IMG/VR virus record: IMGVR_UViG_3300046710_000151
Location: 12,584 to 76,583 of that record
Source of the DNA: a virus
Taxonomy: Duplodnaviria; Caudoviricetes
DNA length: 64,000 nt
Direction: 5' to 3' (one strand)
A program made the translations under genes and the position numbers. This document shows positions 1,738 to 57,673 of the stretch, one piece after another (position 1 is the first letter of the stretch; each line of letters opens with the position of its first letter). A model generated the notes under the pieces. That model worked only from the letters and a program-made list of their open reading frames with translations. It was not told the DNA's origin and did no database searches.

Positions 1738-2990
1738 AACTCAGCCGGCTTGCTTTCCTCGCTCTCGCTTCATGCCTGTCAGTGCAGGCCGCGGATTACT
1801 ACGCCGCGCCAACCGGCTCCCCGTCCTGCGATGGAACGCCCACCTGCGCGTGGGATCTCCAGACGGCCCTGACCAAGCCCCTCATCGGCGGCGACCGTCT
1901 GCTGTTGACAGAAGGCACCTACAAGGGAGCCTTCTCATCCTCGTTGAATGGCGCTGGCGTCCAGATCCAGGTGCTTCCCTATTCTGGGGCACACCCGAGA
2001 ATTGACGGATCGTTGTCTCTTGGCGGCGGATACGTCACCGTCCAGGGTCTTGAGTTCTTTTCGTCAAACACGAATAGGACCGGAGCAATTGGGACGGACT
2101 GCCTTTACACCGGAGGGCCGTTCATCAACCTGGTCCACAACGTCATCCACGACTGCGGCGGAGATGGAGTAGGCTTCTGGTCTGCTGATCCGAACGGGGT
2201 CGCCTATGGGAATCTGGTTTACTACAACGGGTACAACGACGTTGACCGAGGCCACGGGCACGGGTTCTACACGCAGTCGAATCCCGGCGACACGAAGCTG
2301 TTGCAAGACAACGTGGTGCTCAATCAGTTCGGCTGGGGGCTGCACGGGTATACCGAAGGCGGGTTTATTGACGGCATCACGTACCGTGGGAACGTTGCGG
2401 CGAACAATGGCAGTTTGGCGACGGTATCGTGCGCCAAGGGCGGGAACAACAATATCCTTCTCGGTGGCGCTCCTGTAGCTTTCGGTGCGGCGTGGGACAG
2501 CAATTATTCGTACTACCCGTCGAACGGTTGCGTGAATGCGAACCTGGGGTACATCGGCGGGACGAGCGGAGCCCGCTTGACGAACAATTGGCTCATCGGT
2601 TCGACGCCTTTGCAGGTTGTCGCTGCTACTGGGCTGGTGCAAACCGGAACCGTCTCGTATAACTGGAAGGGCAAGAAGTATCCGGTTTCCACTTGCATCG
2701 TGCGTCCTGATCTCTATGAAGCTGGCCGCGCACTCCTGGTGGTAATCAATCTGAGCGGGTCAACCGCTGCGCTGTCTTGCGACGTATCGGCGATCGGCTA
2801 TGCGAGCGGGGCGCAAGTGCAAGTGGCATCGGCTGAAGATTACTTCGGTGCGCGTCGCACCTTTACCGTGAGCGCGGGCAAGATCAGTCTGTCTGTGACT
2901 GGCTGGACCGTGGCCGCTCCTATTGGATGGGCTAAGCCCGCGAGCATGCTGCCCAAGTTTGGGGTCTTTATTTCGAGAGCGAGTTTCTAA
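1734..2990 (+). CDS. secreted right-handed beta-helix (pectate-lyase-like) protein
   Basis: Signal peptide MKLSRLAFLALASCLSVQA from ATG 1734; YYAAPTGS...DG start and Asn/Gly-rich parallel beta-helix repeats. Confidence 0.65.
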   Translation: MKLSRLAFLALASCLSVQAADYYAAPTGSPSCDGTPTCAWDLQTALTKPLIGGDRLLLTEGTYKGAFSSSLNGAGVQIQVLPYSGAHPRIDGSLSLGGGYVTVQGLEFFSSNTNRTGAIGTDCLYTGGPFINLVHNVIHDCGGDGVGFWSADPNGVAYGNLVYYNGYNDVDRGHGHGFYTQSNPGDTKLLQDNVVLNQFGWGLHGYTEGGFIDGITYRGNVAANNGSLATVSCAKGGNNNILLGGAPVAFGAAWDSNYSYYPSNGCVNANLGYIGGTSGARLTNNWLIGSTPLQVVAATGLVQTGTVSYNWKGKKYPVSTCIVRPDLYEAGRALLVVINLSGSTAALSCDVSAIGYASGAQVQVASAEDYFGARRTFTVSAGKISLSVTGWTVAAPIGWAKPASMLPKFGVFISRASF

Positions 2991-2991
2991 C

Positions 2992-5028
2992 ATGGCCTTC
3001 ACTGCATCTACAGTTTGGGAAGTGCAGACCGGCGGCCTGGATGATTTCCAGACCGTATCCTCTGTAGTTGCGGGCGCTGGGTCCGGCTACACGAATGGTG
3101 ACATCCTGACGCTCTCTGGCGGCACTTCCACCACGGCGGCTACCTTCACGGCTATAGTAGCGGGTGGAGTGCTCACGGGTGTTACGCCGCTGAACACCGG
3201 CCACTATACCGTGCTCCCCGCAAATCCGGTGAGCGTGACGGGCGGTACCGGAACGACGGCGACTCTCACCGTGACCTGGAACGCAGGCGGCAACGGCGGT
3301 GGCTTTGATGCGGGTGTGGCGGGGTTCCCCACGGATGGTGCGATCAGTTCTGCCAACACGGCCTCGCCGGTGCTTTCCAGCGCCAGCTACAACTTCGTGA
3401 CCGGCGACGCGACCGCTGGCGCGTGGGCATATTTGAAGGCGGGCACGGGTGTGATCGCGGGTTGGTACAAGATCGTGTCTTGCGCTGGGAACGCTGCCAC
3501 GCTTGACGCCGCGATAGGTCACGTGGTGCTTGCCACTGGTGCCCTGAATACGGTAGCTGGGTGTTCCGCTTCGGCCTCGCTTACCAGCATCACCTGGGGC
3601 TGCGACTACTCGCAATCCGCCACCCCGATTCTGTCTTTCACTGATTTAGTGATTGACGGGACGACTGACACCAAGTTCACCAGCGCGGCGCATCCGGTCG
3701 GAAAGAACTTCATTGGCAATATCATTAACGTAACTGGTGGCACGAACGTTACCGTTCAGCGGGTCGCGGTGGTTTCTACGGTTACAACGACGGCGACGTG
3801 CGATAAGTCCCTGGGCACGTTGAGCAGCACGGGCGGAATTGCGAGTATGGCCGGGTGCTTGAAAAGCGTCGGCGCGGCAGGCGCTTTGACAACGTCTAAC
3901 GGTCAATCGGTGTGGGTTAAATCGGGCTCTTACAGTATCACTTCGGCAACTGCAAATATTCCAGGCGGATGTTATGTGCCATCTTCAAACAGATATTTTA
4001 TAGGTGGCTACCAGACACTAAGATGGGACTTTGGAACGGCCCCCGTGTTGACGGCCTCTGGGATCAGTACGGCGACTTTAGTAAACAACAGCTCGTCATC
4101 CTCTTCGTTGACGGTAAATCTGTCCGTAGATGGAGCCTCTCTGACAGCAATTAACGGAATAACCTCCGGGAATATCTACAGATGTAAAGCGTCGAATTGC
4201 TCAAATGTGGGAATCGATGCTGTCGGTTTTTCGATACTATGTTCCGCCACTGGATGTTCGGGGACTGCTCCAGCGCTCCGTCTTAGGGGCGGCTCTATTG
4301 CTTGTGAGGCGTACTCAAATGCCACTACAGGGGCCGGCATTGATAGCTACGGTTCGACTGCGCTTTACTGTGTATCTTTCCTCAACTCCGGGCCTGGTTT
4401 CACTTCAGGGTCGAGTCCATCGCATCATGTTGGGTGTGTAGCTTACGGGAATGGGGGGAATGGTTTCATAAACCCAAATAATGCGAACGGCTCTTTTGTC
4501 AATTGTATAGCGGAATCAAACCTGGCAGCCGCGTTTAGCAATGGTCAATCCGGGACTCAAATCATTAACTGCGCAACTTTCAACAACACGTCAGGATCGG
4601 GACTCACACCAGGGTTTACGTCTGGATCGCTTACAGCGGGTAATATCGCTTATCTCGCCACCGCCTTTGTCAACGCCGCCGCAGGCAACTTCGCCCTGAA
4701 CAACAACAACCCCGGCGGGGCGCAACTGAGAGCAGCAGGCATCCCCAGAGTATTCCCCGATGGTCTGACCACCGGGTATCTGGACATCGGGGCGGCGCAG
4801 CACGCGGACCCGACCATCTCATACCCCGCCGCGTCAAAGGTCTATGCCGGGACGGATCGTGGAGACGGAGTGACCGGCACGCTGCACGCGAGCAATATCT
4901 CCACGGCGGCTGGGTCGGGAAGCAACTTGAGCGCCGGGATACTGGCGACGGGAAACACGGTTGATGACGTAGTGGGATCGTTGGCGGGCGGTGGAGCGCA
5001 ACTTATCGGCGGAGGGAAACTGTCATGA
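2992..5028 (+). CDS. virion/tail-associated Gly-Ser-Thr-rich protein with a C-terminal beta-helix-like region
   Basis: ATG 2992; GSGY-type beta repeats, NC.A..N repeats and DIGAAQH motif; lies in the late operon. Confidence 0.55.
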   Translation: MAFTASTVWEVQTGGLDDFQTVSSVVAGAGSGYTNGDILTLSGGTSTTAATFTAIVAGGVLTGVTPLNTGHYTVLPANPVSVTGGTGTTATLTVTWNAGGNGGGFDAGVAGFPTDGAISSANTASPVLSSASYNFVTGDATAGAWAYLKAGTGVIAGWYKIVSCAGNAATLDAAIGHVVLATGALNTVAGCSASASLTSITWGCDYSQSATPILSFTDLVIDGTTDTKFTSAAHPVGKNFIGNIINVTGGTNVTVQRVAVVSTVTTTATCDKSLGTLSSTGGIASMAGCLKSVGAAGALTTSNGQSVWVKSGSYSITSATANIPGGCYVPSSNRYFIGGYQTLRWDFGTAPVLTASGISTATLVNNSSSSSSLTVNLSVDGASLTAINGITSGNIYRCKASNCSNVGIDAVGFSILCSATGCSGTAPALRLRGGSIACEAYSNATTGAGIDSYGSTALYCVSFLNSGPGFTSGSSPSHHVGCVAYGNGGNGFINPNNANGSFVNCIAESNLAAAFSNGQSGTQIINCATFNNTSGSGLTPGFTSGSLTAGNIAYLATAFVNAAAGNFALNNNNPGGAQLRAAGIPRVFPDGLTTGYLDIGAAQHADPTISYPAASKVYAGTDRGDGVTGTLHASNISTAAGSGSNLSAGILATGNTVDDVVGSLAGGGAQLIGGGKLS

Positions 5029-11010: not shown

Positions 11011-14000
11011 ATGATCCAAACAACCCGCAGGTGGTTCTTGAAATCGACGAATCGCAGGTCGTCCAAGGGACCGCGAATGCGAACACTGCGCTCGACAACT
11101 ACGACAAGAAAACCGCCGCGTCTGTGGGGAGAGCTGGGAAGGCGTTCGAAGAACACGGCGGTCTGGTGGTCAGGACCTCCGACCGGACGCGGACCGGCCT
11201 GAAGCGTCTGATCGAGACGTTCGAGCAACAAAATGCCGCCTTCGGAAGATCGCCGGTAGAGCAACTTGGCGCGAAATACGATCTACTCACCAAGCGCCTG
11301 GCGGGCAATGTGGATATGCTCAACCGGGCGGCCAAGGCCCACACCGAGTTGAGGGACAAGATGCTGGCGGCACAGAAGGCCGAGTCGTCCATCTTGAGCC
11401 CCCAGGGTCCTGCCGGGATGTCAATACGCGCCGTACGCGACATCGCGGAAGGGCGGATCTCCTACGGCATCGCTACTGGCGCTGGGGCCGTTGCTGGAAT
11501 GAGCGGTGCCCTTGGCGTCGTCACCGGTCTTGGTATCGCACTGGGAGCCCTGACGATTGCCGGATATAAGGCTGCCGAATCTCTCGCAAGAACTGCGGTG
11601 GAAATCCGCGACGTGCAGGCGCGTACCGGTTTCACTGTGCCCGAGGTAAACCAGTTTAGCTTTGCGGCCAAAGCCGTAGGCCAAGACATCGGCGTCTTTG
11701 AGAAGGGAATGCGCGGTCTTTCTCAGGCGGCGGAAGATCAATCCTCCGCTGGTGACAAGGCGCGATCCTGGATGCTCAAGTTCGGCATCGACATCCGTGG
11801 CGTACGCGACGGTTCAGTCAGCACCGCTGAGGTCATCAAGCAACTCGCCACTGGCCTAAATGGTATCCCCAACGTCCTTGAGCGCAACAAGGCCGGGATG
11901 GACATCTTCAAGCGCGCGTGGCTGGAGATGGCCCCGGCGATCTTGCACGTGGCGGACAATATCGAGACGGCCAAACAGCAAGGATTTGGCCCGAGCGAAA
12001 GCGACGTGGCGCGATTCATGGAGCTGAATCGGCAGATCAATATATACCAGGGCCATTGGGCCGATCTGATGCGCGATTTCAAGGAAGGACTGGTAATTGA
12101 GGTAAAACTGATTGGCAGTGGTGCAAAGTTGCTGCTGGGAGGCATGCCGGGCGAAGCTGGAATCAGCGACGCGGCTTACGAGAAATTTCAACGCGACTCC
12201 GCTCTATCGAATGAGATCAAGGCCGCCAAACCTGTCCTCGGGAACTGGGGTACACACGTTCCGCCAGATGAAATCGGACGTCTGACAATGGAGCGCACTC
12301 ACGCTCTGGCAAGGCTCGATTCTGGTACGGCTTTCGACCAAGAAAACGCGACCGGGCAGCAGGCGGACGATCTTAAGTATGCGGCTAAACTCCAGAAACA
12401 AATCGAGGATCTTCGCAAAGGGACCGATGCGGCAAGTTTGGCGCGCAAGAAGGCGGAGCGAGATTCGGAAGATGACGCTATCCGCGCTTACGAACGCAAC
12501 CAAGGCCCGGAACGCAAACTTAAAGAAGCTGAGAAACGGTTGAGTGGGCTCCCGGAGATTCAACTCAATGTGAGCAGTCCACAGGACAGGATAGACCGTA
12601 TAAAGGCAGAGCATGATGTCGAAAGCGCCAAGGCGGCGGTCAAAGCGTTTGACGAGCAGAAAGCCATTCGAGAGAAACTTCGCAAGGCGAGAATCACGGC
12701 GGCCGAAGAGGACGCGAATCCGTTTGGTATGCTCCCCACTGAACGCCTGCGGATGGAGAATGCGAAGGAACCAGGGGCAACCCCGGCTTCAATCGCCGAG
12801 TTCCGCAAGATCACCCAGCCCCAACTCGACAGGGATCAGCAAAAACGCGACGATGCCGCCACCACATTGGCCCGTCAGGAAGAAATCTCCACCGCCCGCG
12901 AACTGCTGCATATCAAGCAGGCGGTGGGCGCCGAAACGCCGATAACCGATTTGGGTAAGAATGGCGTGACCGCGCTTGACGTGGAGAAGAGCATCAACGA
13001 GCAATACGACCGGCGCGTGAAGGACGCGGCGGAACTGCGCCAGCAGGAAATTGGATGGGCAACGGAGAAGAAACTGGACCTCCGGGATGAGGCAAGTTGG
13101 ATCGCGCGCAATCTGGCGATTCAGAAAGCCTGGAGTACGGAAGACATTCAGAACGCCAAGTCCCGCGCCGATCAGGAGAAGCAAATCTCCGATCTCCATG
13201 ATAAGGACCGGGACAAAACGCGCCAGTTCAATGAGTCGATGAGCAAGGTCCTGGCCGGCGACAAAGAGGCGGAGATCAAGCACGCTGCCGATCTGGCCGC
13301 GCGCACGGCGGAGTTGCGATTCAGGGGCGATAACCCTGCTGCCGGGATCATGGCGGACCTGGCCATCAGGAAGCAGGAAGCGGTGGCGCTAAATGCCGAG
13401 ACGGAACGGCAGCTTGCGCAGGACTACGCCGACAAGCTCATCAATTACGACCAACTGAGATTGGGAAACGCCAAGGCGCTGAAGGACCTTCACGACGCGG
13501 ACGGCAAGGCTCAAGAGGAAGCGCAGTATAAGCTGCTGGAAATGCAGCAAAAGCAACTCGACGCCATCAAGGGCACAACGCAAGGGCTGCTGCACGGCTT
13601 ATTCACCTCGCCGTCCACCTTTGGAAAACAACTCGGCGACACGCTCCGCGACGCGGCATTGAAGCCGATAGAAAGCGGGTTGAGCGAGATAATCGCCAAA
13701 CAGTTGCATCCGGTGATCTTCGGCTCGACTGGCACGGGAGGCATCGCCGGCGGGATCTCCGCCAGGCTGCACGGCCTCTTCGGCACCTCGGGCACGGGAG
13801 GCATCGCGGATGTCCAACTGACACCGCTGGGCTATGTGCCGGTGGTTGTCATGGGCACCGAAGGCGGCTTGAGCCTCGCTGGGGCCTTCAGTCCCGCCGT
13901 CAGCACGTTCAGCCGGTTGACCGCGGAACTCGCTGCAAAACGAACCACCGCGCTCCCAAGCGCAGGGCTGGGCATTCTTTCGCCTTTCCTCAGCCTTATC

Positions 14001-20900: not shown

Positions 20901-22001
20901 ACGCCGTTCCGGTTGAGCCATCAACTGAGCGGAACCGAAACACCCGACAGGGTCACCCTCCAGGATTACAAGGTCTGCTCGTGGGGAGCGCCGGATCAGG
21001 AGTTGGACGCTTTGGTGGCGGTGGGAAAGGTAGTGCGGCACTCGGGGATCACAGGCACCCCTCTGCTTGACGTGGCAGCGGACACCCTCACAATCTCTGG
21101 CGATTGGACTGGGGTCGATCTCGCCGGCCGGAAGTGCTCGATTTTGGCGAAGGGTGACGAAGTATCCGAAGTCCCGATCCTCAATTACACGATCACCGGG
21201 CACTCGGCCACCTCGTTGGGCGTTACCGACCTGATGGTGACCCCTGATCCCGTGCTGGACGGGGTGGTCAAGGGCGACGTGCTGACGATTCGACTGAAGC
21301 CGACCATCACCGACAGCGGGCAAACGCTGACCGATGCCGCCTGGGATAACCCGCTGGAGAACAATGGCGGCGGTTTGGCGCCGGCAGAAGAGGTCGGCCT
21401 GCTTTGCCGCATCCTCTACGGCACCGGGCAGGGACTCACCAACACGGTAGCGTCAGCGACGGCCACGAGTCACACCATGGCGCGGGCGTGGCTGGTGGCC
21501 CCGGACAGTACGTCCATTTTCATCTTCGAAGAGGCAAGCTGGCTTCCCCTGGACACCCCCATCCGGCCGATCAACAATGCGGACCCGGAAACCGTGTTGA
21601 CGTTGACCTTCCCGGTCGAAAACTACTGCAAGCGCACCATGCTGGTGGGCCTGCAAACCGAGGATGGCAGCGAAGCGGTCAGCGTGGAAGCGCTCATGCC
21701 GGTGCGGGAAGTTTACGTGTACGGGCAACCTGAAACCACGGTCACGATCACGGAGAGCGACAGCCCCTACCAGTGGCGCTGGTCAGACATGAACGTCTAT
21801 GCGGACTGTTCGGATGGCCCGGTGGAAATCGACTTGCTTCCGATGGTTTCCTACGCAGGAAGACCAGCGTTCATGAAGAAAATCTCCCTCGATTCCTTTA
21901 CCGTCACGATCAAGCCGTTCGCGGACGAACGAATCGACGGGGAATCGGAAGTCATCCTAGCCGATCAGTGGGAATCGTTGCACATCAAATCAAATGTCTG
22001 A
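17910..22001 (+). CDS. tail tip / host-specificity (gpJ-like) protein
   Basis: 1363 aa; PNRL...YQDA.N.F and GC.N..QA.RL motifs of phage-tail_3-like domains; inserted GGSGY-type beta repeats. Confidence 0.75.
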   Translation: MTIDECKELVATHQPLLLITITFRSGLASATATISSGGAIDSIGVDNGGDSYVSPPYVTILGDGGGAMATAVVTDGVVTGVTVDEGGVGYTFAFVVFGDVLFLSTKDVTYNGIDYQGRLSDLDLEAVQMMSESGVDVPASLTLHIADADAALYLNWEEGDGRGFRGAKVEARIVFYDVLSGTFSEDSVVRYTGICDPATPADEAILEVRSTNRLNAGMKMLPTELIQKYCWKIRPRTACQCAEADTPGSQYYPCGITDPNAAECNTTKTGCAAANNSPRFSGVAFAPLQNGGYGREYTSGAWVQLFNNANVAKYGQPWPLVLGRGYVEPPVLNMRQDGNYTRMDVGLCVGHIDTGRDATVAMIVAVNGVRLPPGGYDDPSLGWVALNPGNVGWWNWVGRGWRDGVINPGTDPYGSEATIECVIPQKAAGGNTVPQVSVLFTGPMPGAPFQGPTPDVPVDSPAWHLYDILRRTGWDASELDYDSFAAAAHICSEFIAYSSQYGTTPGGSGVTGITLTNHGTRYTFSPTVTIVGGGGTGATAVAYVVDPQSYNHNGIGIIQYIEVTDPGWGYTSQPSVVITDHYGSNAAATASFSADAANPLHVRYRSNLIIRERRQASEIIRGIRGNFAALLQPNSATGQLGVLVRGTLAAQQPIPQPGSNYNDAIMSQLRDGTPANGYPAYHFTEDNTISIKGIPRPISGTPNRLVFQYQDAENQFAATSMGLVESDDVERIGQEVAATAQILGCANTDQATRLDQMALKESLRGNANGDTRGTRYFEIQTSIRAIRVGLGQLVIATWVKRNLDQQQLRVMGVQGPNKRGVITITAAWHDDSWYVDALLQKPADGYSNPGRNKLARASYPVCPDMVGPRAASGGELQGDPLVDETDRTFAVLPIYDVSTDGVVLAKMRIRTKIGVNQFGSAHPPQTGIQASTSDSGGTLASGLYYLALSARDGNGKLSTLSLIASRHMPEGVTTGSIILPVQWWHASTAGWELFAGRTPFRLSHQLSGTETPDRVTLQDYKVCSWGAPDQELDALVAVGKVVRHSGITGTPLLDVAADTLTISGDWTGVDLAGRKCSILAKGDEVSEVPILNYTITGHSATSLGVTDLMVTPDPVLDGVVKGDVLTIRLKPTITDSGQTLTDAAWDNPLENNGGGLAPAEEVGLLCRILYGTGQGLTNTVASATATSHTMARAWLVAPDSTSIFIFEEASWLPLDTPIRPINNADPETVLTLTFPVENYCKRTMLVGLQTEDGSEAVSVEALMPVREVYVYGQPETTVTITESDSPYQWRWSDMNVYADCSDGPVEIDLLPMVSYAGRPAFMKKISLDSFTVTIKPFADERIDGESEVILADQWESLHIKSNV

Positions 22002-22098
22002 GAAATCTGAGTGGCTTAAAGTCGGCAACGCTTACGCTGCAACATCAAATCAAATGTCTGAGAAATCTGAGTGGCTTAAAGTCGGCAACGCTTACGCT
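21982..22098 (+). repeat. tandem duplication, 57-bp unit at 60-bp period
   Basis: ACATCAAATCAAATGTCTGAGAAATCTGAGTGGCTTAAAGTCGGCAACGCTTACGCT at 21982 and 22042. Confidence 0.95.
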
Positions 22099-39310: not shown

Positions 39311-39607
39311 ATGGCCGCCCCTGAAAGCGCCGCGGTCCTGGCCGCGTTGAGTCGCGCCGCACGGTTGCGCGATGCCATGGAGCGGTCCGATCCGTTGGTG
39401 CGTGCGGTTGCGGTGGCTCGGGAAGCGCTACGGCATTGCGATCCACGAAGCGCGGCGTACAAGGCTGGCATGGTGGAACTGCTGCGCCGAAGGTTCGGCG
39501 GTTCGCGTGGCGATTGTCCATACGTGGCTGGGTCGGCAGAGTTTGATGCCTACTGCTCAGGTATCGAGTGCGGGTGGGGCGTGTGGCGGGAATGCGAATC
39601 TTTATGA
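39311..39607 (+). CDS. hypothetical protein
   Basis: CPY..GS..FDAY..G motif. Confidence 0.5.
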   Translation: MAAPESAAVLAALSRAARLRDAMERSDPLVRAVAVAREALRHCDPRSAAYKAGMVELLRRRFGGSRGDCPYVAGSAEFDAYCSGIECGWGVWRECESL

Positions 39608-40899
39608 AATCTGATTTAACGGTTTTGCCTGTTCCGGCTGAATCCTTCCTTTCATCCGCCCACTCGGGCGGTCGAGGCGATCTTCAGTCGCCGCATACAG
39701 CGTCGGGGGCAGGCGATGAGGGCGAGCATGTGCGACAGCGCGTGCTCGCCATTAAATTGAATTGTGATGACGACACCTATCGTCTGGTGAAAGAGTTAGG
39801 ATGGCAGGCGGCGCGCTACCGCAATCTTTTTCTGCGGGCACGCTGGGCCGAAGCGAAACAGCTTTGCGTCGATCCGGTGAAGGCGGTTCCGCACGATGTC
39901 ACTAAGCACATCCGCGCTACCGAAAAGATGGATCTCGGCTGGTGTGTTTCTAGCGCTTGCGAACGCGAGTCCCAGGTGGCATGGCAGTGTCACTGTCGGC
40001 GCATCCTAGCGGGTGGGCCGCTGCCTGAATCGAGCCCAAATGCGGCCCTCACGATTCGCGGCGACAAGCGCCGCATGGAATCGGGCGTACAACTGGTGGA
40101 GACGGAGCCGGATCGGTTTGTCGCGCGGTTGCGGGTATTAAGTGAGAGATTGGCGGATGGTGCTATGCGCGCGGAGGGCTGCTGGATTGAGGTTCCGGTG
40201 GCACTGGGGACGGCGAAGGATTGGCAGATCGATCTGATCCGCCGTATGAGCGCGGGCGAAGTTCCGATCCTGAAGGGTGCCCTTGTCATTAAGCCGTTTC
40301 GGCATCAGGTGATCTTGCAACTATGCTATCCAGTCACCATTGCCCTGCCGCGATTTGGCAACCGCTGCGCCACCTTGGGTCCGGTCGGCCAGGGCGGCAG
40401 ACTGTTTCTGCGCACAGAATGCGAGACGCGCGATTACTCGGGGCGGCTGCACGCGATTCTGGACCGCAAGGAACACTGGGGCGGTATCCGGCGGCGGGTC
40501 ATGGCGCAGATCGGACGGCACAAAGGTGCCTCCCGGACCAAGCGGGAAGTGCTGGCGCGGATGACTTGGGCCGACTGGCTGAAGACCGAATTGCATCAGT
40601 GGACTTGCGAGATTGCGAAGTGGCTGGACTCGCAAGGCATCGCCAAATTGACCGTGATGGGCTTGGGCAATGCGGATTGGTCAATCTTCGAATTTACACG
40701 AATGCTCACGTACAAGTGTGAAGCGCTGGGAATCACTTTGACCAGCGAAGCGGACTTAGCCGATGTGGGAACTGAACGGTCGGTGAAGCAGGAGATTCAG
40801 CGTGAGCGGCGCAAAACAACCAAACGGGCCGGGGCGCTGCGTACGCTTACGGCCTCAGTCAACGCGCCGTTGGCCAATGATACGACAGGAAAAGGATAA
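39568..40899 (+). CDS. Cas12f/TnpB-like protein with degenerate RuvC (probable start GTG 39730, about 389 aa)
   Basis: Colinear resemblance to Cas12f1 blocks recalled from memory (RRILAGG.PLP, FVARLRVLS, RRMSAGE, LHQW..EIAK.....GI..L, W...EF..ML.YKCE..GI); RuvC-I reads ATLGPV and RuvC-II reads TVMGL; no CxxC finger or RuvC-III. Confidence 0.75.
   Translation: MRVGRVAGMRIFMKSDLTVLPVPAESFLSSAHSGGRGDLQSPHTASGAGDEGEHVRQRVLAIKLNCDDDTYRLVKELGWQAARYRNLFLRARWAEAKQLCVDPVKAVPHDVTKHIRATEKMDLGWCVSSACERESQVAWQCHCRRILAGGPLPESSPNAALTIRGDKRRMESGVQLVETEPDRFVARLRVLSERLADGAMRAEGCWIEVPVALGTAKDWQIDLIRRMSAGEVPILKGALVIKPFRHQVILQLCYPVTIALPRFGNRCATLGPVGQGGRLFLRTECETRDYSGRLHAILDRKEHWGGIRRRVMAQIGRHKGASRTKREVLARMTWADWLKTELHQWTCEIAKWLDSQGIAKLTVMGLGNADWSIFEFTRMLTYKCEALGITLTSEADLADVGTERSVKQEIQRERRKTTKRAGALRTLTASVNAPLANDTTGKG
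39608..39729 (+). ncRNA. putative tracrRNA-like RNA
   Basis: Anti-repeat TCCTTCCTTTCATCC (39643-57), hairpin CCGCCC/GGGCGG, and hairpin GGCGA-TCTTCAG-TCGCC whose loop complements the repeat end CTGAAG. Confidence 0.5.
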
Positions 40900-40904
40900 A
40901 GAAT

Positions 40905-41228
40905 ATGGACAATCAAACGACTACTGCATTAAACGATCTGGCACCGCAAGCGGTCGCTGAGATCAAGAACTATTTTCAATCGACGGTGGACAGCGAGGAC
41001 AGCGCCTACAAACGTGCCGACCTCGGGCTCAAGGTCTTGGGGCGGGTCAACGGCAACGATTCCAACCGAATCAAAGTGCTGGCACTCCAATTCCAGGTGG
41101 CCCGCATGATGGGCGTCAAGGGAGATATGCTGCGTCCGCTGTTGGCGGAACTGAATCCGGCTCTTGCGACTGCCGGGGTAATTGCTGCTCCTCAACCCGT
41201 TGTTGGGGCTTTGTCTCCAGCGGCATAG
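40905..41228 (+). CDS. 107-aa helical accessory protein of the Cas12f-like locus
   Basis: 5 nt after the Cas12f-like stop; the array begins right after its stop. Confidence 0.65.
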   Translation: MDNQTTTALNDLAPQAVAEIKNYFQSTVDSEDSAYKRADLGLKVLGRVNGNDSNRIKVLALQFQVARMMGVKGDMLRPLLAELNPALATAGVIAAPQPVVGALSPAA

Positions 41229-41852
41229 GACTTTGTGGAAGGAACTGAAGGGAACCGACACCAACCCCGGACCCACGGCGCAGCGAGTAGGGACATGGAA
41301 GGAACTGAAGGTTGTCGAGCCCGTGTGCTGGTTTGGGCGCAGCATGTAGGGAATGTAGAAGGAACTGAAGGGTGCAAGGCCCGTCTGCCTTATGCCGCCT
41401 GGGCGCAGCAAGCACGGAATGCGGAAGGAACTGAAGGCAATAAGGCTTTCACACTGCGTCGGCGCAGCAGGGAATGCGGAAGGAACTGAAGGACTGATGA
41501 ACTCCGCGCCCATTCGGGGCACGCCGGGGGAAGGAACTGAAGGGACTCGACAGCGCTCTCTACCGGCGCAGGAAGTAGGGAATTCGGAAGGAACTGAAGG
41601 GCATCGGGTCCGAACAGCCCGCGCCAGTCGAACGGAATGCGGAAGGAACTGAGGGTTGCAAGGCGGCAACACGGTAGGTTGCGGAACCGCCTCGAATGTG
41701 GAAGGAACTGAAGGAAGCATAGATCCGGTTCCGAATCGACTGAACCAGCCGTAGCGCAGCGAGTTGGTGAATAGGAAGGAACTGAAGGCGATACTCTTCA
41801 TCCGCGGCGTTCTTGGCGCAGCGGGTTAGGTGAATAAGGAAGGAACTGAAGG
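41229..41852 (+). CRISPR. non-canonical CRISPR-like array, 11 repeats
   Basis: GGAAGGAACTGAAGG at 41237, 41297, 41357(A), 41423, 41478, 41529, 41586, 41641(GAGGG end), 41700, 41774, 41838; degenerate 5' part GGCGCAGC..GGAAT; unique ~19-40-nt spacers. Confidence 0.75.
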
Positions 41853-41997: not shown

Positions 41998-42272
41998 TGA
42001 GTAAAGAACAAGTGGGAAAGAACATGATACATCCGGTCTACCAGCAGCGCATCGCAGTCGCAGTCGCAGCATCGCAAAAGCAGGCGGTCACACTCCGTGT
42101 GGACGGAGACGGCGACACGGCCTACGTGGTGTGGATGGACCGTAACCGGCATGTCATCGCGTCGGGATCGGAAAAGGGCATGAAAGCGCTGCTGCCGGAT
42201 GTGCAGGCGGAGTTCAAGCGGCAGATGGACGCACAGAAGGTGGAAGGTAGAGGCATGAAGGCATGGCAGTAA
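41997..42272 (+). CDS. hypothetical protein
   Basis: Overlaps the start of the next gene. Confidence 0.45.
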   Translation: MSKEQVGKNMIHPVYQQRIAVAVAASQKQAVTLRVDGDGDTAYVVWMDRNRHVIASGSEKGMKALLPDVQAEFKRQMDAQKVEGRGMKAWQ

Positions 42273-43216
42273 CATTTGAATCGAAAACACCGATCAGCCG
42301 GGGCGATGCGACATACCGAATCGCCACCCACGATATTGATATTGACGCGGAGAACAACGGGCGGCATGTTCTGCCGGACATAGCGTGGTTGGAGAAGTCC
42401 ATCGAGGACCGCGGTCAGGACGTTCCGTGCATCGTCACCAAGGATGGAAGCCGCGCCAGAATGGTTGAAGGCCACTCGCGTTGGAGAGCTATCGTCAATA
42501 TCAACAAGCGCCGCGCTCCCGAAAATCAGTTGTTGGTCTGGTGTGTTTATTCCAGAGGCAACCCGGTGGATGCGCTCATTACCGGATTTGTCACTAACCG
42601 GGAACGTAACTCGCTAACGCCTGTTGACGAAGGGTATTTCGTCAATCGCATGTTGAAGTTCGGTAAGACCATCGAAGAGATCGCCGCCATCTGCCACGAA
42701 GATGTGCCATGGTGCAAACAGCGACTCGCACTGGTTTCTCTGACCCCTGAAGCGCAGACCGCCGTATCGGCCGGCACTGTCAAGGTACCAGCTGCTGTTG
42801 CGCTGTCGAAGCTCGCTGCCGAGGAACAGCGGCGCTATCTGAAGAGCGGCGGGAGGATGACTGCGGCGGCGATCAAGCACTCATCGGCCCCGGTGATCGT
42901 CAGGGCGAAGAAGCTGGGACTACCGGAACTCAAGGAGATTCTGCGGGCCGTCGTGGAAGACGGAGAGTTACCGCCGGCATTCCGGGAAGAGATGCACTCC
43001 AAGAAGGGGATCGTGGCCGGTGAGCCGCTGCACACGTTCTGTGGGCTGATCCTTGACATGTTGAATCCGCCCAAGGCGGCGTCGCCGGCAAAAGAGAAAG
43101 GTAAGCCCGGTCCAAAGCGAAAGCGGAAGGCTGCGGAACCTCCGGTTGCGCAAGTGCAGCAACTGCTGGATGCTGTGGTTTCGGAACCGCATTACGAATC
43201 AATCGATCAAGTTTGA
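42263..43216 (+). CDS. ParB/Spo0J-like protein
   Basis: L..SI...GQ..P..V........EGH.RWRA and N.ER..L.P.DE followed by an HTH. Confidence 0.8.
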   Translation: MAVTFESKTPISRGDATYRIATHDIDIDAENNGRHVLPDIAWLEKSIEDRGQDVPCIVTKDGSRARMVEGHSRWRAIVNINKRRAPENQLLVWCVYSRGNPVDALITGFVTNRERNSLTPVDEGYFVNRMLKFGKTIEEIAAICHEDVPWCKQRLALVSLTPEAQTAVSAGTVKVPAAVALSKLAAEEQRRYLKSGGRMTAAAIKHSSAPVIVRAKKLGLPELKEILRAVVEDGELPPAFREEMHSKKGIVAGEPLHTFCGLILDMLNPPKAASPAKEKGKPGPKRKRKAAEPPVAQVQQLLDAVVSEPHYESIDQV

Positions 43217-56563: not shown

Positions 56564-57673
56564 ATGAGCCTTAAAGCACCCTTCCCGTGGTTCGGTGGAA
56601 AATCGCGGGTTGCCAATCTGGTCTGGGACCGGCTCGGGGACTGTGCCAACTATGTCGAGCCGTTCTTTGGCTCTGGCGCGGTGCTGCTGGCGCGTCCCAC
56701 GGCGCCCGGTATCGAGACGATAAACGACCTCGATTGCATGGTGGCGAACTTCTGGCGTGCGTTGCAGCATGATCCCGACGGGGTAGCGCATCACGCGGAT
56801 AACCCGGTCAACGAAGCCGACCAGCACGCGCGGCACTTGTGGCTGTGCAGGCAGGAAGACTTTCGGGAGCGGATGAAGGTTGACCCGGAATTCTACGACG
56901 TGAAGATTGCGGGTTGGTGGGTTTGGGGCCAGTGCATTTGGATTGGCTCCGGCTGGTGCGCCAGCAAGCTACCTCACTGCGGGGACGCGGGGACGGGCGT
57001 GCATCGCCAGCTACCTCACCTCGGGAACGCGGGGACGGGCGTGCATCGCAAGCTACCTCACCTCGGGGACGCGGGGAAGGGCGATGAATTGGAAATCGCA
57101 AGCGACCTCACCTCGGGAACGCGGGGAAGGGATCTCGCCGGCTATCTGACGGCGCTGGCCGAACGGCTGCGCAAGGTGCGCGTGTGTTGCGGTGACTGGG
57201 CGCGCGTCTGCGGGCCTTCGCCCACATTCAAGCACGGGGTAACGGGCGTATTCTTGGACCCGCCGTACTCCGATGAAGCGGAACGGCAGAACGATCTGTA
57301 CGCCACCGACAGCGGAACCGTGGCGCAGGACGTTCGCGCCTGGGCCTTGGCAAACGGGGACAACCCGCTGCTTCGCATCGCGCTCTGCGGCTATGACGGG
57401 GAGTACCAGATTCCCGATACCTGGGAAGCGGTGGCATGGAAAGCGCGCGGCGGGTATGGATCGCAAGGAGACGGGAGGGGCAGGGAGAACGCGCCCCGGG
57501 AAACCATCTGGTTCAGCCCGCATTGTCTCAGGCCGCAAGGGAACCTGTTTCACTTCAGCGCACCGGACCCGCCGATTCCGCAGAATAGCGAACTGTTCGG
57601 GCGCGTGCTCGGAGAAATCGATCACTGCAAAGACATGGCGCTTTTGACCGCGCCGAAGGACGTGGAAGAGTGA
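56564..57673 (+). CDS. DNA adenine methyltransferase (Dam/D12 class)
   Basis: PFPWFGGK, YVEPF.GSGAV, NDLD and FLDPPY. Confidence 0.9.
   Translation: MSLKAPFPWFGGKSRVANLVWDRLGDCANYVEPFFGSGAVLLARPTAPGIETINDLDCMVANFWRALQHDPDGVAHHADNPVNEADQHARHLWLCRQEDFRERMKVDPEFYDVKIAGWWVWGQCIWIGSGWCASKLPHCGDAGTGVHRQLPHLGNAGTGVHRKLPHLGDAGKGDELEIASDLTSGTRGRDLAGYLTALAERLRKVRVCCGDWARVCGPSPTFKHGVTGVFLDPPYSDEAERQNDLYATDSGTVAQDVRAWALANGDNPLLRIALCGYDGEYQIPDTWEAVAWKARGGYGSQGDGRGRENAPRETIWFSPHCLRPQGNLFHFSAPDPPIPQNSELFGRVLGEIDHCKDMALLTAPKDVEE
56966..57133 (+). repeat. 42-bp in-frame tandem repeats inside the methylase
   Basis: KLPH(C/L)G(D/N)AGTGVHR at 56966, 57008, 57050, plus a partial copy near 57108. Confidence 0.9.

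Follow-up and report, generated by a model that had tools for sequence, protein, structure and literature searches.

A guide-pseudoknot-stem core is common to the guide RNAs of all Cas12 and TnpB proteins, and the part of the omega-RNA that resembles CRISPR RNA (crRNA) measures 16 nucleotides (nt) (PMC10097598). In Cas12b, f, g and l, a long repeat:anti-repeat stem is accompanied by a pseudoknot stem of 5-7 base pairs (bp) (PMC11246509), and in ISDra2 the TnpB omega-RNA overlaps tnpB at its 3' end, a stretch that encodes a disordered and dispensable peptide (PMC10097598). A Cas12f lineage has been inferred to lose activity along with RuvC-III, while its array passes to a half-repeat near the trans-activating CRISPR RNA (tracrRNA) and then to a single-guide fusion (PMC10691335). 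The characterised end-point, a sigma-factor-linked nuclease-dead Cas12f (dCas12f), is without a tracrRNA, and the same study mentions an uncharacterised dCas12f cluster beside CRISPR arrays (PMC13472631). Here we describe a locus in a 76.6-kb IMG/VR virus record (IMGVR_UViG_3300046710_000151; CheckV completeness estimate 73%), of which 64,000 nt, positions 12,584 to 76,583, were analysed as the window. Positions 39626-39750 of the window, on the + strand, probably specify a tracr-type RNA that serves as scaffold in a mini type V system, one that is carried on a mobile element and would bind DNA without cutting it.

The putative scaffold resembles the tracrRNAs of types V-F (Cas12f1) and V-B (Cas12b) in standing beside an array of non-palindromic repeats and a small effector with the Cas12f fold, and in pairing with the repeat in two parts, here a stem of 7-8 bp (up to ~11-15 bp in loci with full 36-nt repeats, as in L014 and L017) and a pseudoknot of 7 bp. 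Unlike those tracrRNAs, it lies in frame inside the effector open reading frame (ORF) and not between genes, its stem anti-repeat is 5' of the pseudoknot one, and its pseudoknot partner occupies the loop of a hairpin. Its long stem has shrunk to 7-8 bp, the effector appears dead, and there is no sequence or Rfam similarity. As to location, the element is directly 5' of, or overlaps, the effector in 15 loci, and is upstream of the array in L003 and L010.

The nearest precedent for the overlap is the ISDra2 omega-RNA, which likewise overlaps a protein ORF whose overlapped peptide is disordered, has the guide-pseudoknot-stem layout, and contains a 16-nt crRNA-like segment equal in length to the conserved repeat remnant here. 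That overlap is with the 3' end of tnpB, whereas ours is with the 5' end of the effector ORF. In addition, the omega-RNA joins scaffold and single guide in one molecule, serves an active nuclease and belongs to a transposon; here the array is separate and transposon ends were not seen. None of the papers searched describes a tracrRNA that lies in frame within an effector ORF.

Anti-repeat pairing and the fold of the element

The element comprises the following parts, in which AR1 and AR2 are the two anti-repeat segments and P1 to P3 the helices.

39626-39634, + strand: 5' strand of P1, pairing with 39707-39715; compensatory changes in 7 of 9 pairs
39637-39640, + strand: 5' strand of P2 (GCUG), pairing with CAGC at 39698-39701; compensatory changes in 3 of 4 pairs
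39643-39650, + strand: AR1, pairing with the 8-nt repeat core (GGAAGGA here); 120 of 128 cognate pairs in 16 loci
39656-39671, + strand: CCGCCC/GGGCGG hairpin in the variable linker between AR1 and P3; lineage-specific, with analogues in L011, L023, L025 and L027, absent from most other loci
39676-39692, + strand: hairpin P3, stem 39676-39680/39688-39692 and loop AR2 at 39681-39687; stem 100% paired, with eight different sequences
39693-39715, + strand: joining block (GCAUA), 3' strand of P2 (39698-39701) and 3' strand of P1 (39707-39715); nearly invariant, codon third positions included
39721-39750, + strand: 3' hairpin, 13-bp stem 39721-39733/39738-39750 with loop GACA; folding free energy (dG) -28 kcal/mol

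We fetched 28 related loci, each with its own repeat variant, and counted pairing in the 16 where both element and array were readable. The repeat ends 3' in an 8-nt purine core, one nucleotide and CTGAAGG (GGAAGGA-A-CTGAAGG in the window array). In addition to the AR1 pairs listed above, the AR2 loop pairs with the final 7 nt of its cognate repeat at 104 of 112 positions; non-cognate pairing averages 6.0 of 8 for AR1 and 5.9 of 7 for AR2. When tracr elements were permuted against arrays, none of 200,000 permutations reached the observed AR1 total (p <5e-6), and 55 of 200,000 did so for AR2 (p 3e-4). An earlier note on this DNA had proposed a tracrRNA-like element whose anti-repeat is split, with one segment making a pseudoknot-like contact through a hairpin loop, and had named covariation across homologous loci as one way to check it. 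The co-variation found, both with each repeat and within P1, P2 and P3, supports that proposal.

The 16 loci carry nine AR1 variants and six loop variants, and two more AR1 sequences occur in L025 and L027. A single change in L014 is compensated (tail CTGAGGG, loop TCCTCAG), as is the wholesale change in L024 (tail TTGGAGG, loop TCTCCAA). The repeat core and tail of L022 are unrelated to those of the window, and pair with their own element at 8/8 and 7/7 positions; together with L025, these make four loci whose loop variants are each matched by their own repeat tail. Some of the matches were predictions. The repeat tail of L024 was predicted from the loop and afterwards found; in the distant clade of L025 and L026, AR1 and the loop were read first, the repeat was predicted, and the exact repeat was then located. 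Covariance model R1 detected the elements of L010 (81 bits) and L022 (31 bits), having been built without them. From these comparisons, for which 17 homologous loci were set against the window, we regard functional pairing of the RNA with the array repeats as almost certain.

All the sequence features that the earlier note listed are present at the coordinates it gave. The sequence TCCTTCCTTTCATCC stands at 39643-57 and had been credited with 15 nt of complementarity to repeats 10 and 11; its 7-8-nt core is conserved, but the extension is bulged on each strand and is unconserved elsewhere. The GGCGA/TCGCC stem (39676-80/39688-92) encloses the loop TCTTCAG (39681-87), whose pairing with the repeat tail co-varies across loci, and the CCGCCC/GGGCGG hairpin (39656-61/39666-71) lies between the two segments as described. 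A possible closing stem, GCCTG/CAGGC (39627-31/39710-14), turns out to belong to the 9-bp P1. A further candidate interaction, between the 5' part of the 36-nt repeat (G-N-C-G-C-A-G) and the conserved GCAUACAGCG block, was rejected, as inspection revealed no complementarity.

Helices were called from RNAalifold and pair counts on an alignment of 16 elements (A3), which gave P1 (9 bp), P2 (4 bp) and P3. Compensatory changes are carried by 13 of the 19 pairs in P1-P3. Paired cells amount to 90%, compared with 72% in shuffles and at most 56% with the partner slid, and double-change cells number 48 versus 13; on no measure did any of 500 shuffles attain the observed value. The middle pair of P2, for example, is UA in nine loci, GC in four, CG in two and UG in one. 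U-G pairs in P1, such as 39633-39708 (13 of 16 loci), fit the + strand only, and + is therefore the RNA strand. In many loci, an insert of 30-36 nt in the P3 loop after AR2 forms two further hairpins, one with a GNRA tetraloop.

The 3' hairpin has a dG of -28 to -34 kcal/mol in 11 other loci in which the element is fused in frame to the effector (hereafter fused loci). It shows compensatory changes in L017, L019 and L014, and the detached tracr of L010 keeps a hairpin of other sequence. Because this hairpin is conserved and compensated, the RNA module runs to ~39750, further 3' than the limits of 39608-39729 that had been suggested.

Evidence from the window alone is modest and no more than suggestive of pairing. 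Outside the array, the 7-mer TCCTTCC occurs 12 times against 8.6 expected, and a two-part pattern (the 7-mer, 20-45 nt, CTTCAG) has two non-array matches against 0.03 expected. The minimum-free-energy fold of the single sequence is no better than those of shuffles (z = -0.35), and the structure is thus visible through comparison only.

The effector frame and competing explanations

The earlier note placed the element upstream of the effector, with translation starting at GTG 39730. Comparison across loci does not support that start, and places the element within the opening ~40 codons of the effector frame instead: codons 1-42 hold the tracr element, and the Cas12f-fold domain begins at ~39721-39730. 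In every one of the 15 fused loci, the reading frame of the effector continues without a stop through the whole element, beginning at an ATG that precedes P1 by a few codons. This ATG usually comes directly after the preceding stop, and in the window, where it is ATG 39604, it overlaps the stop codon of the preceding ORF as ATGA. Frame 1 is interrupted by stops in all fused loci, and 7 of the 15 have an open frame 2. Spacings between conserved blocks (18-39, 18-54 and 36-135 nt) are all multiples of three, no internal start codon is conserved, and GTG 39730 falls within the 13-bp stem of the 3' hairpin, of which the 5' arm encodes G-E-H and the 3' arm R-V-L-A. Most family members, distant ones included, have an extension of 40-55 residues with the same in-frame motif, A-E-S...R-G-x-L-Q-x-P-H-T-A. 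Type V tracrRNAs are non-coding genes, whereas the element lies in an open frame in all 15 fused loci; it is non-coding relative to the effector only in L003, L010 and L022.

Constraint in this extension does not act on the peptide. Nucleotide identity at codon positions 1, 2 and 3 is 0.67, 0.65 and 0.68 in the element, compared with 0.68, 0.75 and 0.41 in the coding sequence. The 36 amino-acid residues (aa) that the element encodes are predicted to be disordered: in an AlphaFold (AF2) model, the predicted local distance difference test score (pLDDT) is ~27 at residues 1-36 and >89 from residue 41. Third positions as conserved as first and second ones, together with a disordered peptide, argue for constraint on the RNA inside a translated frame. 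The conserved peptide motifs are best read as read-outs of RNA helices, the G-E-H codons being complementary to the V-L-A codons, for instance. The earlier note had set a translated conserved extension against conserved complementarity, so that the first would speak against the RNA. That choice proves false, as the frame of the extension and the complementarity are both conserved.

Three loci separate the RNA from the gene. The effectors of L003, L010 and L022 are without the extension, and the matched element is retained elsewhere in each locus. L003 and L010 have the order tracr-array-gene, and in L022 a 1.3 kb insertion sequence separates tracr from effector. In this part of L022 (2102-4649), a TnpB gene (OrfB_IS605 plus Cas12f1-like_TNB, 2287-3471) stands between the tracr (2102-2235) and the dead effector (3501-4649); here an active relative has inserted itself inside the locus of its dead cousin.

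Several observations weigh against a scaffold RNA. AR1 provides only 7-8 bp in the window, and the weakest case, L019, has an AR1 pairing of 5/8. AR1 stands 5' of AR2, the reverse of the order in TnpB omega-RNA, and the order in Cas12f single-guide RNA is likewise opposite. A position within a translated frame would be unusual for a tracrRNA, and ribosomes would unfold the element. The distance from the end of the preceding gene to the ATG is 0-36 nt in many loci, which means that a discrete small RNA would have to be released by processing. A promoter and terminator scan detected no sigma-70-like promoter and no intrinsic terminator at the element, and no Rfam family matches it.

Part of this evidence would suit a cis-regulatory structure of the effector mRNA, in which repeats of the array transcripts pair with its 5' coding region and thereby control translation or stability. 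The element would then not belong to a guide ribonucleoprotein, and the true scaffold would be elsewhere or unneeded. Such a structure could well lie inside the ORF without a promoter or terminator of its own, and the 3' hairpin does bury possible internal starts. We nevertheless consider this unlikely. A repeat remnant of 16 nt that is not palindromic cannot fold into the pseudoknot and stem common to all Cas12 and TnpB guides (PMC10097598), and the loci hold no other conserved non-coding element. The two-segment pairing mirrors the repeat:anti-repeat geometry of type V (PMC11246509). Moreover, matched anti-repeats persist when detached from the gene, whether by the array (L003 and L010) or by the insertion sequence (L022).

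Highly improbable, too, is a reading in which the region does no more than encode a conserved N-terminal effector peptide and its complementarity to the repeats is incidental. The open frame in 15/15 fused loci, the indels in multiples of three and the recurrence of the A-E-S...R-G-x-L-Q-x-P-H-T-A motif in distant members are what a peptide would produce. Its conservation, however, lacks codon periodicity, compensatory changes occur at non-synonymous as well as synonymous sites, and the anti-repeats track the repeat of each locus. The peptide is also predicted to be disordered, is absent from the L003, L010 and L022 effectors, and changes its motif in distant loci where pairing is kept (L014); an alignment artefact, which could rescue this explanation, is disfavoured by the predictive tests in L022, L024 and L025. 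Scarcely credible, finally, is a DNA-level relic, an inverted degenerate repeat kept array-like by gene conversion and without RNA function: the complementarity is short and tracrRNA anti-repeats are generally held to derive from repeats, but an inverted copy would give AR2 directly followed by AR1, whereas AR1 comes first here, 25-40 nt before an AR2 enclosed by a co-varying stem, P1 and P2 have no counterpart in the repeat, and the U-G pairs are strand-specific.

Effector, array and neighbouring genes

On the + strand, the effector ORF (39568/39604-40899) is followed by a 107-aa ORF and then by 11 direct repeats.

39604-40899, + strand: effector ORF in its likeliest translated form; gene call of 431 aa and frame conservation
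40905-41228, + strand: 107-aa partner ORF; directly 3' of the effector in all loci with sufficient sequence, 19-62% identity
41218-41852, + strand: array of 11 repeats; only the 3' 15-16 nt conserved, periods of 51-74 nt

The 389-aa part of the effector from 39730 has no curated family match; searches of Pfam, PHROGs, NCBIfam and PADLOC returned nothing beyond TnpB or transposase hits below threshold. We found 32 close metagenomic relatives, and a profile search of 1.84 billion representatives yielded 134 effector clusters (50% identity). There were no relatives in 185,579 species genomes, cultured phages or PLSDB plasmids, and the family is known solely from metagenomic mobile elements. The AF2 model of the effector is confident (pLDDT 87.6), and its best Foldseek match is AsCas12f (E 6e-15), with Os, Sp and Cn Cas12f and TnpB after it; a solved dCas12f is also matched (1e-12). 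Structure-based identity to that dCas12f is ~12%, and there is a profile match to the SpCas12f1 sequence (E 9e-4). In a profile alignment to AsCas12f, the RuvC-I Asp is replaced by a near-invariant Thr and the RuvC-II Glu by a hydrophobic residue, Val or Met; the C-terminus is a basic helix, without CxxC pairs, zinc finger or RuvC-III. Given that the RuvC Asp and Glu are missing, as are RuvC-III and the zinc finger, and given a Cas12f fold and an array, the effector is predicted to be a nuclease-dead, CRISPR-associated Cas12f-like protein of ~390 aa, carried on a mobile element.

The effector thus shares the Cas12f/TnpB fold, with its WED, REC and RuvC core, but not the Cas12f RuvC Asp-Glu-Asp triad or its zinc-finger (TNB) domain. 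Many V-F loci, though not all, have cas1, cas2 or cas4; we found no Cas1 in the 76.6-kb contig, nor any among the called genes of related loci. The dCas12f-sigmaE systems (PMC13472631; PMC10691335) are alike in Cas12f fold, in C-terminal truncation (no RuvC-III or zinc finger), in short guides and in presumed binding only. They differ in having a single guide, no tracrRNA and an rpoE partner, where this family has a separate tracr, multi-unit arrays and the 107-aa partner, and the contig has no match to Sigma70_r2 or any sigma-70-family gene. Cas12m (type V-M) and TldR are likewise mobile-element-encoded and silence by RNA-guided binding without cutting (PMC11656645; bioRxiv 10.1101/2023.11.30.569447). 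Cas12m, however, is a larger protein that matures its crRNA itself and works without a tracrRNA, and TldR uses a single guide of the omega-RNA type, with no array.

Repeats in the family range from the full 36 nt (L014, L016, L017 and L019) to a 16-nt remnant with a spacer of ~15-25 nt (L001, L002, L007 and L009-L011), with a separate tracr. The family thereby looks like an intermediate stage on the path from Cas12f to single-guide dCas12f set out in PMC10691335. It may or may not be the CRISPR-linked dCas12f cluster that PMC13472631 mentions.

In the window array, the tail of repeat 8 reads CTGAGGG. Spacers 2, 3 and 8 (41252-41680) are alike: spacers 2 and 3 are identical at 11 of the first 17 positions, spacer 8 starts similarly, and the three may be directed at related sites. 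A search of the 76.6-kb contig for self-targets of the spacers gave nothing convincing, only chance-level matches of 12-14 nt, and three 20-nt spacer prefixes had zero exact matches in IMG/VR. Spacers had no matches in other related loci, except for spacers common to L006 and L012 and for one case in L013. There, a stray repeat unit lies between tracr P1 and the 3' hairpin (L013:1500-1537), and the next 19 nt are the exact reverse complement of the effector's first codons (R-V-L-A-V-K-L) in other loci. The match is 19/19 in L020 and L009 and 17/17 in L007, and the L013 gene's own start differs at six synonymous sites. These 19 nt may serve as a natural guide, whether directed against competing elements or used in autoregulation; alternatively, they may be just a hairpin arm beside a misplaced repeat.

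The partner has no match in Pfam, PHROG, NCBIfam or PADLOC, and its start frequently overlaps the effector stop. In L006, L009, L010, L012 and L021, a partner ORF of ~100 aa is within the array, with repeat units flanking both sides (e.g. L009:2538-2879), and in L003 and L010 the array also sits between tracr and effector. The module evidently undergoes frequent rearrangement.

Just 3' of the window array, 42263-43216 encodes a ParB-like protein (PHROG 1033, E 7e-21), which suggests a plasmid-like or partition-competent phage. Related loci adjoin genes for type IV secretion, recombination (ERF, RecT, YqaJ, SSB) or integrase. Elsewhere in the window are a perfect 60-nt tandem duplication (21982-22098) and a 42-nt tandem repeat of ~3 copies (56964-57127), neither of them related to the tracr element.

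Proposed mechanism and implications

Co-variation shows that the RNA folds into the closing stem P1, the short helix P2, hairpin P3 and the strong 3' hairpin, and that two of its single-stranded segments pair with the final 16 nt of each array repeat. In the model that we propose, AR1 and the repeat core would form the repeat:anti-repeat stem, and the AR2 loop would form the pseudoknot with the 7 nt beside the spacer, a layout that matches the guide-pseudoknot-stem of Cas12 and TnpB guide RNAs. The effector would bind the tracr:crRNA hybrid, and spacers of ~15-25 nt would guide DNA binding without cutting, as in dCas12f, Cas12m and TldR. The AR1-AR2 order would fit a circularly permuted RNA whose ends now lie in P1, the former ends being joined by the variable linker.

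The RNA is probably processed from a polycistronic transcript, or active within it. Binding of the effector to its own mRNA could feed back on translation, which is plausible but speculative. In one version, the overlap itself would be functional: any one transcript would go either to translation, during which ribosomes melt P1-P3 and the 3' hairpin, or to the finished protein, which captures it as scaffold. The synthesis of effector and the assembly of guide complexes would thereby be tied by a built-in, stoichiometric feedback. We offer this last idea tentatively and rate it as less likely to be right than wrong.

The locus has a minimal dual-guide architecture, consisting of a scaffold of ~125 nt, a crRNA with a 16-nt handle and a guide of ~20 nt, and a ~390-aa relative of Cas12f that would naturally only bind DNA. 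This architecture is usable for reconstitution and of interest for compact tools of the CRISPR interference type. It also illustrates that a tracrRNA can hide in a coding frame, where pipelines confined to intergenic sequence would miss it and gene callers would report a spurious conserved N-terminal motif. In spanning 36-nt repeats to 16-nt half-repeats with a separate tracr, the family appears to represent a living intermediate. If the overlap is indeed functional, a tracrRNA that is circularly permuted, embedded in an ORF and active with repeat remnants of 16 nt would give RNA-guided systems of mobile elements a new organisational principle.

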